Positions 1-7,129 of a stretch of DNA of 7,129 nt are shown here, piece after piece. The notes below the pieces were generated by a model. The model saw only the letters and a list, made by a program, of their open reading frames with translations, did not search any database and was not told the DNA's origin. This DNA is from a virus (taxonomy: Duplodnaviria; Heunggongvirae; Uroviricota; Caudoviricetes). Each line of letters begins with the position of its first letter. Positions within the stretch are counted from its first letter, which is position 1. The DNA lies in the IMG/VR virus record IMGVR_UViG_2671180543_000002; one strand, 5' to 3'. The translations under genes were made by a program, and so were the position numbers.

Positions 1-11
1 CAGATGGCTGC

Positions 12-257
12 TTAAAAAAAGAACAAATGGTAGTGTCCGCTATTGCCAGTACACCTCAATTCTTTGGCATTTTTTACCTCGTTACGCGCGTCTGTGGCTT
101 TGCCAACGGATACTTCCGCGTGCGCACGAGTGAACCAGTGCGTGGCAACGTCTTCCTCCACAACATGACGGCCTTTAACAAACTCGCGCCGAGAACCGTC
201 GGGAAGCGTGAGCACAAACGGGGTATGTACGTGTATTACTGCATCATTTTTTGCCAT
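12..257 (-). CDS. Hypothetical phage head-module protein (81 aa), first gene downstream of the major capsid gene; function unknown
   Basis: ORF from the track. ATG at 255..257 (minus sense) is preceded by AAGGA about 7 nt upstream. It is co-oriented with and 41 nt downstream of the capsid gene. The stop at 12..14 sits directly on an A7 run (14..20) at the window edge, so the true 3' end is uncertain. Confidence 0.5.
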   Translation of the reverse strand: MAKNDAVIHVHTPFVLTLPDGSRREFVKGRHVVEEDVATHWFTRAHAEVSVGKATDARNEVKNAKELRCTGNSGHYHLFFF

Positions 258-272
258 CGGGTCATCCTTAAT

Positions 273-289
273 GGCCCCGCCAGGGGGCC
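273..289 (-). promoter_or_regulatory. GC-rich stem-loop (6-bp stem GGCCCC/GGGGCC, 5-nt loop) in the 41-nt spacer after the major capsid stop
   Basis: Seen directly: 273..278 GGCCCC pairs with 284..289 GGGGCC. No U-run follows on the mRNA strand, so it is not a canonical intrinsic terminator; an mRNA-stabilising or attenuating hairpin is more likely. Confidence 0.35.
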
Positions 290-298
290 ATGTGGCTG

Positions 299-1240
299 TT
301 AAATGCCATCAACGTACGAAATGGTTTCTTTGTACACTGGCTCGACTGCACCCAGCTTGCCGTAGTAAGTGACGATCTGATACAGACCGCGATACTGCAC
401 CGGCACGCTCTGAAGCGGAACCAGCGGGTAGCGGACGTATTTTTTATCGTTGGTGTACGCAACTATGCGATCCTTATTCCCCACACCACGGCCTTTCAGC
501 CATTTAACCGCGCGGATATTCAGCGGAACACCGTTCTGGTGATAGCTGATGGTGTTGGTCTGAAGGTTCGTCAACAGGGACTGGTTACCTGCAGATGAAA
601 CGATGATGCTGGACAACAGAGCAAACTGCTCAGGCGGGATCAGCAAATCACGCGGAACCACAGAGTAACCAGAAGCGGCCCACGCATCAGACAGCACCTG
701 GTTAATGCTTGCGCGGATTTCGTCCGGTGTTGAGGTTGCCCACGTTTTGGCAGCGTTGTTGACAGGCACGCCGTCCAGGGTAACAAGGCCTTTCAGGTTT
801 AATGCGGAATCGCCAACATATACCTGTTCATCGTTATCCATCTGCCATTTCAGTTGCATACCGTCATACTTCTGCGTATCAATCGGGCGGCCGACCTGCT
901 GAGCAGCCTGCAATTCTATGACCGTCCAGCCAAGTTCCATCCCCCACAGGTTCAGCGGGTTACCGGATTTGCCGATATCCACGTTCACGCCAGCAATAGC
1001 GGTTGAGTCTTTGCCTACCCAGTTTTTTCCATTCGGATTTGCGCCAGTACCCGCAGCGGCGAAGCTGGTATTCGTCCAGCTGGAAATGTCATCTGCGATG
1101 GAGGCGTCTTCACGCAGTTGAATATCGCGGCTCCAGGTGTACCCCACCAGTGGCAGGTTCAGCGTCTGGTCGAGTCTCTCCAGCTCCCCGATGAGAAAGG
1201 CACCAGAGCTGTCAACGGTTGCCTGATCAAAAGTAATCAT
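299..1240 (-). CDS. Putative major capsid protein (313 aa)
   Basis: Position immediately after protease/scaffold and decoration-like genes in a terminase-portal-MuF-protease operon; size typical of HK97-fold capsid proteins; strong SD (AAGGA) 9 nt upstream of the ATG at 1238..1240. Family assignment is by context and recollection, not by a search. Confidence 0.7.
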   Translation of the reverse strand: MITFDQATVDSSGAFLIGELERLDQTLNLPLVGYTWSRDIQLREDASIADDISSWTNTSFAAAGTGANPNGKNWVGKDSTAIAGVNVDIGKSGNPLNLWGMELGWTVIELQAAQQVGRPIDTQKYDGMQLKWQMDNDEQVYVGDSALNLKGLVTLDGVPVNNAAKTWATSTPDEIRASINQVLSDAWAASGYSVVPRDLLIPPEQFALLSSIIVSSAGNQSLLTNLQTNTISYHQNGVPLNIRAVKWLKGRGVGNKDRIVAYTNDKKYVRYPLVPLQSVPVQYRGLYQIVTYYGKLGAVEPVYKETISYVDGI

Positions 1241-1384
1241 TCGTCTGTTCCTTAAATCTTCCAGGAAATTTCTGCATTGCCGTCAGCATCACCGGCACCT
1301 GTGAATTCAGCGTTGGTCAGCACCACGTTTTTGCCACTGACTGACGTGGACATGAATCCACCCAGAGGCACTTTGATGGATTCA

Positions 1385-1741
1385 TCAGTGGAGATCGCCT
1401 TTTTTGATAGTGCTGGCATCAAAATCAGAACCGAGATTAACGGTCACGTAGCCACGCTTCATGGCGTCGCCCGGGAAGTTCTTGCCTGTTCCCACCTGGC
1501 GAACCATGTCCGGCTGCGACGTGGTCGGATAAGGGCGCACGTAGATCCCCTTCACCTTGTCTGCGGTATCACCATCTGCCAGCGGCACGAAAAAACCGTC
1601 ATCATCGTATTTACCAGCCAGGCCATAGGCAGCGAAGGCGTTATCGGATTTAAGGACCACCGGTTCGACGGTTAAGTCCTGCGGGCGAGAGACAGCCCCG
1701 GCAATGCCAACAGGCATCCGGTACAGAAATACATTATTCAT
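1385..1741 (-). CDS. Small head protein, decoration-like (118 aa as called); probably frameshifted, with the coding frame continuing to 1252
   Basis: ORF from the track, 3 nt downstream of the protease/scaffold stop. An A6 run (1400..1405) lies just before the called stop. A different frame stays open and protein-like to a TAA at 1252..1254 that overlaps the capsid SD. Confidence 0.55.
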   Translation of the reverse strand: MNNVFLYRMPVGIAGAVSRPQDLTVEPVVLKSDNAFAAYGLAGKYDDDGFFVPLADGDTADKVKGIYVRPYPTTSQPDMVRQVGTGKNFPGDAMKRGYVTVNLGSDFDASTIKKGDLH

Positions 1742-1744
1742 TTT

Positions 1745-2413
1745 TTACCCTTTACGGTTTGCCCAGAATTCAGCGTTTTGTTTGTTCAGGGAAGCGATAC
1801 TGGTCATGCCCATGTTTAGGCGCTGTGCATCGCCGGTGGTGGCGCGGGTGTTTCGCCCTTTGGCAACCTCAGACACGGCATTAAACGCCATGTCGACCGA
1901 TTGTTTCGGTAATTTGCGGATATCCGCATCACCGACTATCTGGCGAACCAGCGTTTTGTCAGCAGAAGCCAGAACCTCGCGTTTGAACGCGGTCGGTTTC
2001 ATCTTACGGCTCAGATCGATACCCGGAACGATAACTTCGGCACGCCAGGCTGAGTCACCAGTAATCGTGGTTTCCTCTTCATCGTCCTCGCCGTCACCGG
2101 TCGGATTATCGTCAGGCTTATTATCGTTATCGCCCGTGGCATTTCTTTCCAGCTTAGCCAGCAGGGCTTTCAGTAATGTTTTGAGGTCATCATCACTGTC
2201 GCCGGTTGGATCTCCGCCCATCTCTGGTGCTTTGTCCGGTAGTGGTTGCTGCGGGGACAGGTTGATGTTGAGATTAACGCCCTGCGGCAAATCCCCCTCA
2301 TCTCCTGTAACCGATGCGGGAGCCGACTCCACCAGTTCGTTCATGGTGTCGGCATCTCCTGTCTTGATGGCCGCACGCATGCGGTTCCACCAGTTTTTCT
2401 TTTGATTTGCCAT
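1745..2413 (-). CDS. Candidate nested in-frame scaffold protein (222 aa) initiated at the internal ATG 2411..2413 (Met185 of the protease ORF)
   Basis: Internal in-frame ATG preceded on the mRNA strand by GGAGACAGAGACACA (GGAG about 11 nt upstream); it falls exactly where the N-terminal domain ends and the acidic region begins. Inference by analogy to Mu I/Z and lambda C/Nu3. Confidence 0.3.
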   Translation of the reverse strand: MANQKKNWWNRMRAAIKTGDADTMNELVESAPASVTGDEGDLPQGVNLNINLSPQQPLPDKAPEMGGDPTGDSDDDLKTLLKALLAKLERNATGDNDNKPDDNPTGDGEDDEEETTITGDSAWRAEVIVPGIDLSRKMKPTAFKREVLASADKTLVRQIVGDADIRKLPKQSVDMAFNAVSEVAKGRNTRATTGDAQRLNMGMTSIASLNKQNAEFWANRKG

Positions 2414-2965
2414 TGTGTCTCTGTCTCCAATTGCACAACGATTTCCGGCTCTGCCTTTAGGGACAAGAGCCACATGGTTTCCGGTAATATCGACCTGCTC
2501 GGCTTTACCTGGCTCGGTCTGCTCGTACTCCGCGTCATAGCCGCACGACACTTCGCGCAGGCCATCTTCGATAAGCTGAATGGCGCTTTCGTCTTTGACG
2601 ATAAGGTCAGCCAGCATCAAATCAGACTGCTCACCCGTCCCGCGCCGGACATTCTGGAGGTGCCCGACAGCAAGCACTTTCCAGTTCTCGGGATTTACCA
2701 GCCGCACATTCCCGTTTTCATCTTCAGGATGCAGGATCGTGATGCTCATCCCTTCGAATGAGGCAAGCGTGGCCGGATGGAATACCTGCTCAGGAGAACG
2801 CGTGACGACTATTTCAACGAACTTATCGGGTTTCAGTTTTGGCAGGTCATCAGCACCATAGAGCTGCTTACCTGTTCGTCCTATCGGCACGTCTTTGCAC
2901 AGCAACGAGCCGTCAGCCAGGCGGTATCGGGTTTCCCCGAGCCTGGTCTCAAAAAAGTATTTCAT
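1745..2965 (-). CDS. Putative prohead protease / scaffolding protein (406 aa): N-terminal globular domain, acidic low-complexity linker, C-terminal scaffold-like region
   Basis: Position between the MuF-like gene and the capsid gene; strongly acidic D/E/G/T-rich stretch (roughly residues 200..300) typical of scaffold proteins; architecture analogous to Mu I/Z or lambda C/Nu3. Confidence 0.65.
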   Translation of the reverse strand: MKYFFETRLGETRYRLADGSLLCKDVPIGRTGKQLYGADDLPKLKPDKFVEIVVTRSPEQVFHPATLASFEGMSITILHPEDENGNVRLVNPENWKVLAVGHLQNVRRGTGEQSDLMLADLIVKDESAIQLIEDGLREVSCGYDAEYEQTEPGKAEQVDITGNHVALVPKGRAGNRCAIGDRDTMANQKKNWWNRMRAAIKTGDADTMNELVESAPASVTGDEGDLPQGVNLNINLSPQQPLPDKAPEMGGDPTGDSDDDLKTLLKALLAKLERNATGDNDNKPDDNPTGDGEDDEEETTITGDSAWRAEVIVPGIDLSRKMKPTAFKREVLASADKTLVRQIVGDADIRKLPKQSVDMAFNAVSEVAKGRNTRATTGDAQRLNMGMTSIASLNKQNAEFWANRKG

Positions 2966-2968
2966 GGG

Positions 2969-3751
2969 TTATGCTGCCCTTTTCATTGCGAATGGAACGC
3001 GAACAAACACGATCTCTTTATAGCAGCGGCAGTTTGGCAGCTCGCCCGCGTGGCCGGTCATGCCGTCCAAAGTTGGAGGTGAATCCCAGCGGACGAATTT
3101 ACCTTTCATGTGATCGTGGGAATCTCGGACATCGCCATCATCGGCTGTACGCCAAATATAACCATCCGAGCCAATAGCTATCGCTCGGGCCATATCCAGC
3201 GCGCCCGTTGCTCTTCCCAGTTCCGTTCGGGCAATCAGATCGGCCCTAGACTTAGCAACATCGCCGGTAGATGCAATCTCTTTAGCAAACTGCTCCGCCC
3301 GACCACCGGTGACAACAGCCTCTATCGCTTTGTTCTGGATGTCGTACACCCTGTCTGCGGCCTCGAGAGGCAGAGATTTGATGTACTTGACCTGTTCGGC
3401 GATGATGGATTGCATCACCTGGCCCACAGGAGCGCTTTCCACAAGATTGCGGAGCTCGCGACTGATGTTCTTGCTGTGTTGCCGCCAAACTTTCTCGTTC
3501 TGCCGGGTTAGGTCCGCAGTAAAGTTTTCCGCGACCTTTGTCGCCCAGGGGGTGATGATTTCACTGTAACGCTCCAGCGCCGCAATAATTTCCGTGATAC
3601 TGTCATTTGAACCATCGTAGCGACCATTTACGATGTCTCCGACCGCCCTCGCTATCCTGCGTAGGCTGGTTCGATACCGGATTTCCGCCTGACGGCTCCT
3701 GCGGTTCGTCATCAGGTTCGCCGATGCCGGGCGGCGCTTCATCTTCGGCAT
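2969..3751 (-). CDS. Phage head morphogenesis protein, Mu F / SPP1 gp7-like (260 aa)
   Basis: C-terminal region contains ...WRTADDGDVRDSHDHMKGKF...GELPNCRCYKE..., matching my recollection of the conserved VR..H and CRC signature of Mu F-like domains; located between portal and protease. GAGGA SD 8 nt upstream of the ATG at 3749..3751. The start overlaps the portal 3' end by 149 nt. Confidence 0.8.
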   Translation of the reverse strand: MPKMKRRPASANLMTNRRSRQAEIRYRTSLRRIARAVGDIVNGRYDGSNDSITEIIAALERYSEIITPWATKVAENFTADLTRQNEKVWRQHSKNISRELRNLVESAPVGQVMQSIIAEQVKYIKSLPLEAADRVYDIQNKAIEAVVTGGRAEQFAKEIASTGDVAKSRADLIARTELGRATGALDMARAIAIGSDGYIWRTADDGDVRDSHDHMKGKFVRWDSPPTLDGMTGHAGELPNCRCYKEIVFVRVPFAMKRAA

Positions 3752-5069
3752 TCTCGATGTCCTCGTTGGTAATGGATGCCCCTATGCCGGTTACGTCAGA
3801 ATTTTCTCGCAAATCAGTCATAGCGGCTTTCAGTGTCATCAGACCATCACCCAGCGCCGTACTGATTGCGTTGGTGGTGTTTAACGCCACCGTTGAGCGA
3901 TCGACATCAGACATTTGCCAGAGCGGGTTAAACTCAAACGTGAAATCGTCCGGCAGCGGCTTGCCAAGTTCCGAACGATGCATGATGTCCAGTATCCGCC
4001 GCACCGGAAGACGTAAACGCCTCTCCTGCAACGAACTGATGCGATCGTAATAGTTGGCAAGGTCTGCATCACCGGTAGAAAATCCTTTCGGGGACTGTCC
4101 GAACAACCGCACCAGTGGGATACCAACAGCGCCACTAATCTGTTCTGCAAACTGCGAAAGGATGTCATCCAGACCACTGAAGCTGTACTGATGGGTTTCA
4201 AACTTATCCCGCGAGTCCATGAGCGTCATGCCTTCATTACTCTGGAACTGTCGAATCAGGTCGATATTCTTCAGCAACGCTTCATACGCAGGACCACCAA
4301 GTGCGATAAGCTCGCGTAGCTTCTCCACGCTGTAGGTACGCAAATGCGCCTTGTAGACCAGCTGCGCCGCGCCGACAGTAGCGCTGTCGAACGCGGTAAG
4401 ACGATCCCAGATACGCTCTACAACCGACATTCCCCATTCGTTCTCGGTCATCTTCTGCTGAAATGGCAACGTGACGCCATCAAAGCGAATCAGGCGACTG
4501 TGATGAATGCGCCAGGCAGGAATTCCCGTTGCTGTGGTCACCACATCGTAAAACTCAGGTTTACCCAGGTCCGGCCCCATATCTTTAATGCGGCGGGTCA
4601 GTGCCGGGTCGACCATCCAGCGGTCGAGCGGGAGAATCCCCTTAAACTTGCCCTTACCGATGGTTTCGGGTCGCAGCGGGGTCATTGGTGCCTGCCCCTC
4701 AATCATGATGAAACCCACCGCGCCGCCGTAGAGGCGCGACCATTTCAGCACGTCATTCAGCGCATCCCAGATTTGCAACTCATCCAGTTGTGATTCGAGA
4801 ATGCCACGATCTTTTGCATCAATTTCCGAAGTGATGCGAATGCCTTTGCGGGTCATATCATCCGGGATAGCATCGACTGCTTCGCCGATGATCCAGGATG
4901 AACGATAGGACCATTCCACCAGCATGCGGTTACGACTGGTGAAATTAGCCCGGTAGGTGGATGCTGAGTGCTGGTTAGGTGTCTGCATCCCTACTCGGGC
5001 AATAAAATTCTCATAACCATCAGCTGTGGCCTGCACAGTTCGCCGCAGGGCTTGTTTGTTTCGTGCCAT
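3603..5069 (-). CDS. Putative phage portal protein (488 aa) with an acidic, proline-rich C-terminal tail
   Basis: Size and position directly downstream of, and translationally coupled to, the terminase large subunit (ATGA overlap at 5067..5071) and upstream of the MuF-like gene. Family inferred from context. Confidence 0.7.
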   Translation of the reverse strand: MARNKQALRRTVQATADGYENFIARVGMQTPNQHSASTYRANFTSRNRMLVEWSYRSSWIIGEAVDAIPDDMTRKGIRITSEIDAKDRGILESQLDELQIWDALNDVLKWSRLYGGAVGFIMIEGQAPMTPLRPETIGKGKFKGILPLDRWMVDPALTRRIKDMGPDLGKPEFYDVVTTATGIPAWRIHHSRLIRFDGVTLPFQQKMTENEWGMSVVERIWDRLTAFDSATVGAAQLVYKAHLRTYSVEKLRELIALGGPAYEALLKNIDLIRQFQSNEGMTLMDSRDKFETHQYSFSGLDDILSQFAEQISGAVGIPLVRLFGQSPKGFSTGDADLANYYDRISSLQERRLRLPVRRILDIMHRSELGKPLPDDFTFEFNPLWQMSDVDRSTVALNTTNAISTALGDGLMTLKAAMTDLRENSDVTGIGASITNEDIENAEDEAPPGIGEPDDEPQEPSGGNPVSNQPTQDSEGGRRHRKWSLRWFK

Positions 5070-5801
5070 CAGGCCTGTCTCCCCAGCTGTTCCCAGATAT
5101 CCAGCGATGTATCGATTGGCGCGAAGGCCATAATGAATGCATCAGCAACGTTTGGTGACGGTATCTCGCGTTTTGCGAGGTCTTTTTTACTTTCGACCAT
5201 CACACGTCCGTTACGGTCGAAATCACGATGAGGTGTTGTCAGTTCCAGTTTCAGCTTTTCAAGCAACGGACAACGAGAATCTATGCTGATCAGCTCATCC
5301 ACAGGATACTGTTCTCCGTTGTTAATGGCGTTAAACGTATTTCTGAAACGGTCAGCCACCATGCCTGAGCCTTAAGATTTGCGAAAAAGTCTTTGTTGGG
5401 GATGCCGTTGTACTCGTCATCTGGCTCATGCACACCAGCACCGGCGTTAAACCTCTGGTAATTCACACGTCGCGCGTATGCGTTCTCGCTCTTCCGGTCA
5501 GCGTTAATTTCAGAGAATTTAGCACCGGCAGACGCACCAACACCGATAGAGTCGTAAACAATATCTGCTTCACGCTCCAGCGCCGCCTGATAAGTACGCT
5601 GGCAGCTCTTCAGTAATTCATCTTCTTTGGCCTTCCATTCGTCGGCCCAGAAAACAACGGATCCGTGACGGTAAACGTTAGCGCACTTATCTGTACCACT
5701 GTCAGCCACGTCAAAGCCAATACGCTTTCTTCCACTGGGTTCGAAATTTAACGTTTTGTGCGCATCCACTGCGGCTTCTATCCAAGACAGTTTGATGATT
5801 G
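5069..5801 (-). pseudogene. Terminase large subunit, 3' half only (nuclease domain), with an internal frameshift near 5350..5362 and 5' truncation at 5802 by an IS2 end
   Basis: ORF 5290..5829 contains ...RIGFDVADSGTDKCANV..., resembling the RNase H-like nuclease motif of terminase large subunits. ORF 5069..5362, in another frame, looks like the terminase C-terminal end (...ESKKDLAKR..SPNVADAFIMAF). The first 9 codons of the 5290..5829 ORF (MSGNIGANP) are read out of the IS2 terminal repeat. The ATPase half is absent. Confidence 0.8.
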
Positions 5802-5860
5802 CTGGATTTGCCCCTATATTTCCAGACATCTGTTATCACTTAACCCATTACAAGCCCGCT
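5802..5860 (+). mobile_element. Terminal 59 bp of an IS2-like (IS3 family) element, outermost end at 5802, running into the N gap
   Basis: TGGATTTGCCCCTATATTTCCAGACATCTGTTATCACTTAACCCATTACAAGCCCGCT is identical to 6942..7000 and matches my memory of the IS2 right terminal inverted repeat. Confidence 0.75.
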
Positions 5861-5870
5861 NNNNNNNNNN
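5861..5870. other. Run of 10 N: assembly/scaffold gap of unknown true length
   Basis: Literal n characters in the sequence. Confidence 0.99.
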
Positions 5871-6941
5871 AACACCAAAGGCGATGCCATGATTGGCGTC
5901 AAGCAGCCTTTACCAAAAGCAGTTTTAAGAACTCAGCATGACAAAAATAAAGAAGCAATAAGTATCCTGGATTTTGGTGTTATTGATGATGGTGTGACAG
6001 ATAATTACCAGGCAATACAAAATGCTATAGATGCCGTTGCTTCACTACCCTCCGGCGGGGAGCTGTTTATCCCTGCGAGCAACCAAGCGGTGGGGTATAT
6101 TGTTGGATCCACTTTGCTTATTCCTGGCGGTGTTAACATCAGAGGAGTTGGTAAGGCATCGCAACTCCGAGCAAAAAGCGGACTTACAGGATCTGTGTTA
6201 AGGCTGTCTTATGATTCAGACACTATCGGCCGTTATCTGAGAAATATACGAGTAACTGGTAATAACACCTGCAATGGTATTGACACAAACATTACAGCAG
6301 AAGACTCTGTCATCAGACAGGTTTATGGCTGGGTATTTGATAATGTAATGGTGAATGAAGTTGAAACCGCATTATTTAATGCAAGGGCTCTGGCACTCAA
6401 AATTTATAGCATGTCAGGCTGGAACCTGTAGAGTCGGTCTTCACTTTTTAGGCCAGTGCGTAAGTGTTAGTGTCAGCTCCTGCCATTTCAGCAGAGGAAA
6501 TTATTCTGCTGATGAAAGCTTTGGCATCAGGATTCAGCCTCAAACGTATGCGTGGTCGTCAGAGGCAGTTAGGTCAGAAGCAATAATTTTAGACAGTGAG
6601 ACCATGTGCATTGGTTTTAAAAATGCCGTCTATGTTCATGATTGCCTTGATTTGCATATGGAACAACTGGATTTAGATTATTGCGGCTCAACAGGCGTGG
6701 TTATAGAGAATGTAAACGGAGGATTTTCTTTCTCAAACTCATGGATAGCAGCAGATGCCGATGGCACTGAACAATTTACGGGGATATATTTTAGAACGCC
6801 GGCCTCAACGCAGTCACATAAAATTGTCAGTGGTGTTCATATCAACACTGCAAACAAAAACACGGCTGCAAACAATCAAAGTATAGCGATAGAACAGTCG
6901 GCGATCTTCGTCTTTGTAAGTGGTTGTACGTTAACTGGTGA
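5871..6941 (+). pseudogene. Right-handed beta-helix, pectate-lyase-like protein (possible glycan depolymerase or tailspike-type enzyme); frameshifted between 6355 and 6431 and 3'-truncated by the IS2 end at 6942; 5' end may lie in the gap
   Basis: N-terminal ...ISILDFGVIDDGVTDNYQAIQNAIDAVASLPSGGELFIPAS... resembles the signature start of pectate-lyase-3-type beta-helix domains. The reading frame is open from 5871 (ATG at 5889). Two overlapping ORFs in different frames (5889..6431 and 6355..). Everything after 6941 in the second ORF is IS2 sequence. Low GC compared with the phage genes. Confidence 0.55.
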
Positions 6942-7129
6942 TGGATTTGCCCCTATATTTCCAGACATCTGTTATCACTTAACCCATTACAAGCCCGCTG
7001 CCGCAGATATTCCCGTGGCGAGCGATAACCCAGCGCACTATGCGGATGCCATTCGTTATAATGCTCGACCGCCTCTGCAAGGTTCTTTGCTGCCGTTAAC
7101 CCGTCTGGTTTGGGCATGATACTGATGTA
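6942..7129 (-). mobile_element. IS2-like element, right end (partial; the element continues past the window end), with its terminal inverted repeat starting at 6942
   Basis: Same terminal sequence as at 5802..5860, here continuing into the transposase coding sequence. Confidence 0.8.
6953..7129 (-). CDS. insD: IS2 / IS3-family transposase OrfB, 3' end only (5' part outside the window)
   Basis: Minus-strand translation ...[54 protein letters not shown], stop at 6953..6955; the HYNE..HSALGY..P motif is typical of IS3-family integrase C-termini. Confidence 0.7.

Follow-up and report, generated by a model that had tools for sequence, protein, structure and literature searches.

An IS2 insertion and a 7-bp repeat loss in the large terminase gene of a decayed Shigella flexneri prophage

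The window analyzed here (i.e., the whole stretch of 7,129 nucleotides of IMG/VR record IMGVR_UViG_2671180543_000002) is almost certainly part of a draft Shigella flexneri genome and carries the head-gene module of a decayed prophage. With the same high confidence, we interpret this module as an S. flexneri prophage remnant in which the gene for the large terminase subunit was inactivated by insertion of IS2 and by loss of one unit of a 7-bp repeat, and which has been inherited clonally. Both the IS2 junction and the 7-bp deletion are real and are fixed in the S. flexneri genomes sampled here. Finished public genomes already contain the locus, which represents ordinary, known IS-driven decay, with nothing new to it.

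The window is a scaffold of two contigs, which are separated by a gap without sequence, a run of 10 N (5861..5870, unstranded). The first contig starts 58 bp inside IS600 and ends 58 bp inside IS2; such bounding by IS elements at both ends is the usual signature of collapsed repeats in short-read assembly. The existence of a contig of about 5.9 kb ending in IS600 and IS2 is thus explained by the collapse of multi-copy IS elements in short-read assemblies, and the same signature fits the many 5-10 kb contigs that bear the chimeric product described below. The sole assembly effect is that the draft halts 58 bp into IS2 and is bridged by 10 N to an unrelated contig. As the end coordinate given for the terminase lesion in the original prediction (5860) is the last base before the 10 N, only 58 bp of IS2 are present at the junction. 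The base calls of the isolate itself were checked solely by identity with finished genomes.

The large terminase of this module is of the type represented by phage Sf6 gp2. Among complete E. coli genomes searched with megablast, 43 bear the region, and the portal-adjacent gene in these genomes is annotated as a large terminase of the PBSX family; the intact allele in E. coli VL40 (locus L002) encodes 467 aa. As the two terminase fragments of the window matched no family in a Pfam search, domains were mapped through the intact E. coli allele and through PDB sequences. The intact VL40 terminase carries the Pfam Terminase_3 ATPase domain (PF04466) at residues 24-213 and aligns to Sf6 gp2 (PDB 4IDH) over residues 10-449 (E 2.5e-79). 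Structures of the nuclease domain (8DKR, 5C10 and 5C12) align to residues 212/213-449/453, with E 1.3e-66 for 8DKR and E 1.9e-24 for Sf6 5C10, while Pfam PF17288 scored 20.8 bits on the intact protein, under its cut-off of 26.7. The intact E. coli allele therefore shows the same two-domain layout as Sf6 gp2, i.e., an ATPase at 24-213 and a nuclease from about residue 212. Unlike Sf6 gp2, the terminase copy in the window (5069..5802, minus strand) consists of the nuclease part alone; alignment to intact genes, domain mapping and codon positions identify it as a 3' fragment comprising codons 221-467 of 467, including the RNase H-like nuclease domain; the cut lies at codon 221, and the frame shifts at about codon 371. 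The statement that only the nuclease half is present is thus right for the window, where what remains of the gene begins past the ATPase domain. PF04466 is absent from the window and is found, in finished genomes, on a 227-aa fragment across IS2 (residues 24-213, E 7.9e-39), so that the 5' half of the terminase, which the original prediction had proposed to recover, has been located. Because IS2 is inserted at codon 221 and 7 bp are missing at about codon 371, the two terminase domains do not share a single uninterrupted frame; this copy is a pseudogene of the Terminase_3 / PBSX family and not a working member of it.

The match of the terminase gene to the intact VL40 gene ends at base 5802, after which the sequence continues as TGGATTTGCCCCTATATTTCC..., the right terminal repeat of IS2. 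The junction thus lies between 5802 and 5803 (junction string GACAGTTTGATGATTGC followed by TGGATTTGCCCC) and cuts the gene at codon 221 (AAIIKL..., nt 663), just past the Pfam ATPase domain (24-213). Both the alignment with VL40 and the finished genomes bear out the claim that the terminase is cut by an IS2 end at 5802. Comparison with the intact gene and with finished genomes identified 5803..5860 (minus strand) as the first 58 bp of the IS2 right end (IRR), which extends to the end of the contig and supplies the ATG and 9 codons of a 179-aa ORF. IS2 is represented in the window by right ends alone, i.e., these 58 bp (5803-5860) and 188 bp at 6942-7129. The full element is found in the finished locus L003, where it spans 1331 bp (8697-10027, from TAGACTGGCCCC... 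to ...GGGGCAAATCCA) and is flanked on both sides by GCAAT, a 5-bp target-site duplication of the kind that had been suggested as a check at the far IS2 end; the intact gene contains a single GCAAT. As IS2 is flanked by the duplicated GCAAT, the insertion represents a genuine transposition event.

The identity of the element as IS2 (IS3 family) agrees with its length of about 1.3 kb with IS2 terminal repeats, the 5-bp duplication and two overlapping transposase frames. These frames comprise orfA, with a helix-turn-helix (121 aa, PF01527), and orfB, with a DDE integrase core (301 aa; HTH_21, rve and rve_3). In some records, the transposase is given as a fused product of 408-409 aa, with a programmed frameshift noted by RefSeq, and the matching E. 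coli copies are annotated as IS2 by RefSeq. In ten finished chromosomes, the gene order is terminase N-fragment (227 aa, PF04466, E 8e-39), IS2 orfA/orfB, the 179-aa chimeric ORF, a 77-aa remainder, portal and the remaining head module. A separate IS2 copy was observed in the same terminase gene of E. coli FDAARGOS_943 (NZ_CP065615.1, L001 7226-8556), i.e., an independent 1331-bp insertion at nt 448 in the same orientation with the target-site duplication CCAGC; this copy differs from the S. flexneri terminase IS2 at 5 positions. The FDAARGOS_943 prophage also has an internal stop in its head morphogenesis gene.

The second lesion is a loss of 7 bases. The references VL40 and FDAARGOS_943 read GGT-CAGCCAC-CAGCCAC-CATGCC, where the window has one CAGCCAC; alignment and string checks place the lone unit, of which the intact gene has two in tandem, at 5353..5359 (minus strand), with the frame shifting at about codon 371. 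The frame break predicted near 5350..5362 thus corresponds to one missing CAGCCAC, the remaining copy being at 5353-5359. After ...KAQAWW, the shifted frame runs through 26 out-of-frame residues to a stop at 5290, and the true terminase continuation, (L)VADRFRNTFNAINNGEQ..., is found in the ORF at 5069..5362. The upstream ORF (5290..5829, minus strand, 179 aa) starts at an ATG inside IS2, and its first 27 nt (5803-5829) encode 9 IS-derived codons (MSGNIGANP), as had been noted from the reading frame. Alignment to solved structures indicated that this ORF loses, through the frameshift, the conserved C-terminal ...SPNxADA... segment of the nuclease domain. The 179-aa ORF, with its IS-derived start, and the 97-aa ORF are pieces of a pseudogene and should not be handled as proteins.

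Either lesion alone would be expected from gene structure to abolish packaging, because ATPase and nuclease must share one chain and because, after the frameshift, the nuclease fold lacks its C-terminal portion, SPNxADA included. The element would thus be unable to package DNA.

To assess how widely the two lesions are shared, the window was compared with other genomes. Positions 1-5860 matched the finished S. flexneri chromosomes at loci L003, L004 and L006 without a difference (100% identity) and six other finished chromosomes at 99.9% or better; four of the matching accessions appear in PMC9455713 as chromosomes of S. flexneri serotypes 2a, 2b and 3b. By string checks, every one of the 12 carrier loci (10 finished chromosomes plus 2 other complete genomes) has a single CAGCCAC unit together with the IRR junction, and both E. 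coli comparison loci, i.e., VL40 and FDAARGOS_943, have the two-unit allele. Among the sampled genomes, none was seen with only one of the two lesions (IS2 or the 7-bp deletion). Moreover, the exact 179-aa chimeric product was present in 1402 blocks of a public assembly collection; the longest carrying contig exceeded 1 Mb in 32 of these blocks and measured 5-10 kb in 1123. An exact scan for the junction in the assembly collection returned S. flexneri SFBU1023 and ECMA0423, a genome labelled Escherichia coli. The latter (CP178302.1, L020, 4.44 Mb) carries the exact S. flexneri IS2-terminase junction together with the 7-bp deletion and could belong to Shigella or EIEC despite its E. coli label.

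Two of the carrier loci show additional changes, so that decay is ongoing in single strains. At L010 (LR213452.1, about 8240-8790), the junction between the left end of IS2 (IRL) and the terminase N-fragment is missing, which is consistent with an IS2-mediated rearrangement and with a locus that is still rearranging in some strains. At L012 (CP026792.1, about 13644-14909), an extra IS3-family insertion was observed in the DUF2213 gene, with a 3-bp overlap at 2186-2188.

Under the reading favored here, the remnant derives from an old prophage of lambdoid type that has decayed. IS2 transposed into codon 221, at the boundary between ATPase and nuclease, duplicating GCAAT and parting the two halves of the gene by 1331 bp, and one unit of the tandem 7-bp repeat (CAGCCAC x2) was lost at about codon 371, for which replication slippage is probably the simplest explanation. 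Both lesions would be older than the split among the S. flexneri lineages sampled and would have been passed on by clonal inheritance thereafter.

Other explanations were weighed against this history. That IS2 entered the terminase gene twice independently, in the same orientation, might reflect selection for disabling packaging or a preferred IS2 target rather than chance, although the second insertion (FDAARGOS_943) is one post hoc case; that either of these applies, or that the nuclease ORF started by IS2 is expressed, is jointly very unlikely. We regard as highly improbable a recent, strain-specific transposition of IS2, in which the lesion would be private to the isolate and the prophage would have been active until lately. 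IS2 is active in Shigella and its relatives, and both the independent IS2 in the FDAARGOS_943 terminase and further IS insertions confined to single strains (e.g., the one at L012) could be read in favor of such an event; on the other hand, the identical junction and deletion recur in strains from several continents and of several serotypes, and the remainder of the prophage has already disappeared, with no tail genes and an IS-interrupted lysis cassette.

It is also conceivable in principle, with a probability close to nil, that the chimeric ORF, in which an IS2-derived start precedes the terminase nuclease domain, is expressed and retained because it serves the host in some way (e.g., as a nuclease). 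The ORF does take its ATG from the IS2 end, and gene calls in the assemblies that contain it give exactly this product. However, it is frameshifted at about codon 371 with loss of the conserved SPNxADA segment, scanning the IS2 end in front of the ORF for promoters revealed no outward promoter-like site on that strand, and its conservation is explained by clonal descent, given 100% nucleotide identity. Substitutions in neighboring genes relative to VL40, small in number, also mostly alter the amino acid, as would be expected of drift without constraint, the numbers being too small for a test. Finally, an assembly artefact, in which an IS2 end was mis-joined onto an intact terminase and the frameshift is an indel error, might be suspected from the 10-N gap right after 58 bp of IS2 and from a post-gap contig that is not a true neighbor, but is rejected, with hardly any probability left to it, because both lesions are shared base for base with finished S. 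flexneri chromosomes (the junction, the whole IS2, the 5-bp duplication and the 7-bp deletion being present in the 10 finished chromosomes and 2 complete genomes), because the exact chimeric product recurs in the 1402 collection blocks, and because loss of a whole 7-bp repeat unit would be atypical of a base-calling indel. Of the two readings left side by side in the original prediction, i.e., defective prophage or assembly artefact, the former was therefore retained and the latter discarded.

The genes beside the terminase were examined as well. Relative to VL40, the window shows 16 substitutions and two deletions (7 bp and 17 bp) across 5744 bp and no other differences; identity is 99.3% over 5.7 kb. 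The portal gene (3603..5069, minus strand, 488 aa; PF06381, Pfam E 3e-106) is full length, and the adjoining gene for a Mu F-like head morphogenesis protein (2969..3712, minus strand, 247 aa) encodes a protein identical to that of VL40. The gene for a DUF2213 head protein (PF09979; 1745..2965, minus strand, 406 aa) is full length by comparison with VL40, as is the major capsid gene (DUF2184 / PF09950; 299..1240, minus strand, 313 aa), which shows 3 amino acid differences from VL40 and no stops. Conversely, the cement / minor capsid gene (1252..1741, minus strand) is a pseudogene when compared with VL40, in which a 17-bp deletion between 1392 and 1393 reduces the product from 168 aa to 118 aa; this deletion is also present in finished S. 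flexneri genomes. The last gene of the module, a small STY1053-like phage gene (12..257, minus strand), has its last 7 codons replaced by IS600 at the junction between 58 and 59, and its translation differs from that of VL40 starting at residue 67. The view that the downstream head genes look intact thus holds for capsid, DUF2213, Mu F-like and portal genes and fails for the cement gene and for the gene cut by IS600.

The IS600 sequence itself (1..58, plus strand) is the right end of the element, consisting of the last transposase codons (...QMAA and stop) and the terminal repeat, and forms the left boundary of both the first contig and the remnant; it was recognized from the loss of similarity to the intact E. 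coli prophage at positions below 59 and from the full IS3-family IS600 in finished genomes. Structural genes that lie beyond the STY1053-like gene in VL40 are gone in S. flexneri, where remnants of a Mu-like transposase are found past IS600. No tail genes remain in the prophage remnant, and the lysis region in finished genomes comprises only Rz1 and IS elements. With terminase and cement genes broken and the block ended by IS600, this is a block of phage genes without the genes needed for particles, i.e., a defective prophage. As terminase, tail genes, most of the lysis cassette and an intact cement gene have all been lost, we regard the element as a dead remnant rather than as a satellite-like or helper-dependent phage. 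Prophage-calling tools that register "intact head genes" at this locus would overrate it.

Intact relatives of the module are known. The E. coli VL40 prophage and its relatives show the same gene order (STY1053-like, capsid, cement, DUF2213, Mu F-like, portal and terminase); in intact prophages of the VL40 type these genes are uninterrupted, and VL40 has further structural genes past the STY1053-like gene. The head module keeps this order, without interruptions, in the isolated E. coli phages vB_EcoM-689R2, 611R5, 683R1 and 606R2, whose head genes are 95% identical, and in the related Salmonella phage SEN34. When compared with L002 (1243-7673), the E. coli phages (ON470582.1 and others) were observed to share the head module up to the boundary between portal and terminase and to carry a different terminase thereafter; a Wanchaivirus record matches the terminase alone, at 82%. 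These alignments mark a mosaic joint at the portal/terminase boundary.

The cryptic prophages of E. coli K-12 (DLP12, Rac, Qin and e14) are of lambdoid origin, have been stripped of essential modules by deletions and IS insertions, and no longer form particles. The element described here is likewise a lambdoid remnant, but it is a separate prophage located elsewhere. No description of this particular terminase lesion was found in the literature, where a search returned only general papers on IS-driven genome decay in Shigella. The expansion of IS elements in Shigella involves IS1, IS2, IS4, IS600 and IS911 (Hawkey et al. 2020, PMC7373316), and among S. flexneri pseudogenes, 22% are attributable to IS alone and a further 24% carry an IS together with another inactivating mutation (PMC7373316). 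The terminase resembles these IS-driven pseudogenes in that an IS3-family IS2 lies in the coding sequence with a 5-bp duplication and a second inactivating mutation in the same gene, that the lesions are fixed in the species, and that short-read contigs break at the IS copies. It shows no difference in kind from them; the paper gives genome-wide counts, and the word prophage does not occur in its main text. Overall, the biological weight of the locus is small, as it adds a further case to the thoroughly documented decay of Shigella genomes by IS elements, and its practical value lies in annotation and scanning.

The contig beyond the gap is not part of the terminase locus. It contains an internal piece of a P22-like tailspike gene (5871..6941, plus strand, 1071 bp), which is split into two ORFs by a 1-bp insertion at 6371, and the match to this piece in E. 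coli CFSAN061762 begins 394 nt into a 623-aa gene. The tailspike fragment is cut by a second IS2 right end (6942..7129, minus strand, 188 bp), which includes the last transposase codons and was identified through Pfam rve_3 and genome comparison. An exact-product look-up of the 254-aa tailspike/IS2 chimeric ORF found none on record in the assembly collection; the location of the tailspike in finished genomes was found through the exact product of a 180-aa upstream ORF. The possibility that the N gap hides the rest of IS2 and the 5' half of the terminase was also considered and was rejected, as the sequence after the gap is this tailspike fragment, which lies inside cusB.

By record coordinates, the tailspike contig and the terminase locus are about 210 kb apart in CP058589.1 and CP026788.1 and about 48 kb apart in LR213455.1. 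Given these distances in finished genomes, the closeness of terminase and tailspike in the window is not physical, and no inference should be drawn from their adjacency across the 10-N gap. In finished genomes, the tailspike piece is flanked by an IS3-family element on one side and IS2 on the other, all within the copper-efflux gene cusB (L015 5427-11099), which is split into pieces of 257 aa and 167 aa. Its position between two IS elements in a chromosomal operon suggests that this phage fragment underwent an IS-mediated relocation.
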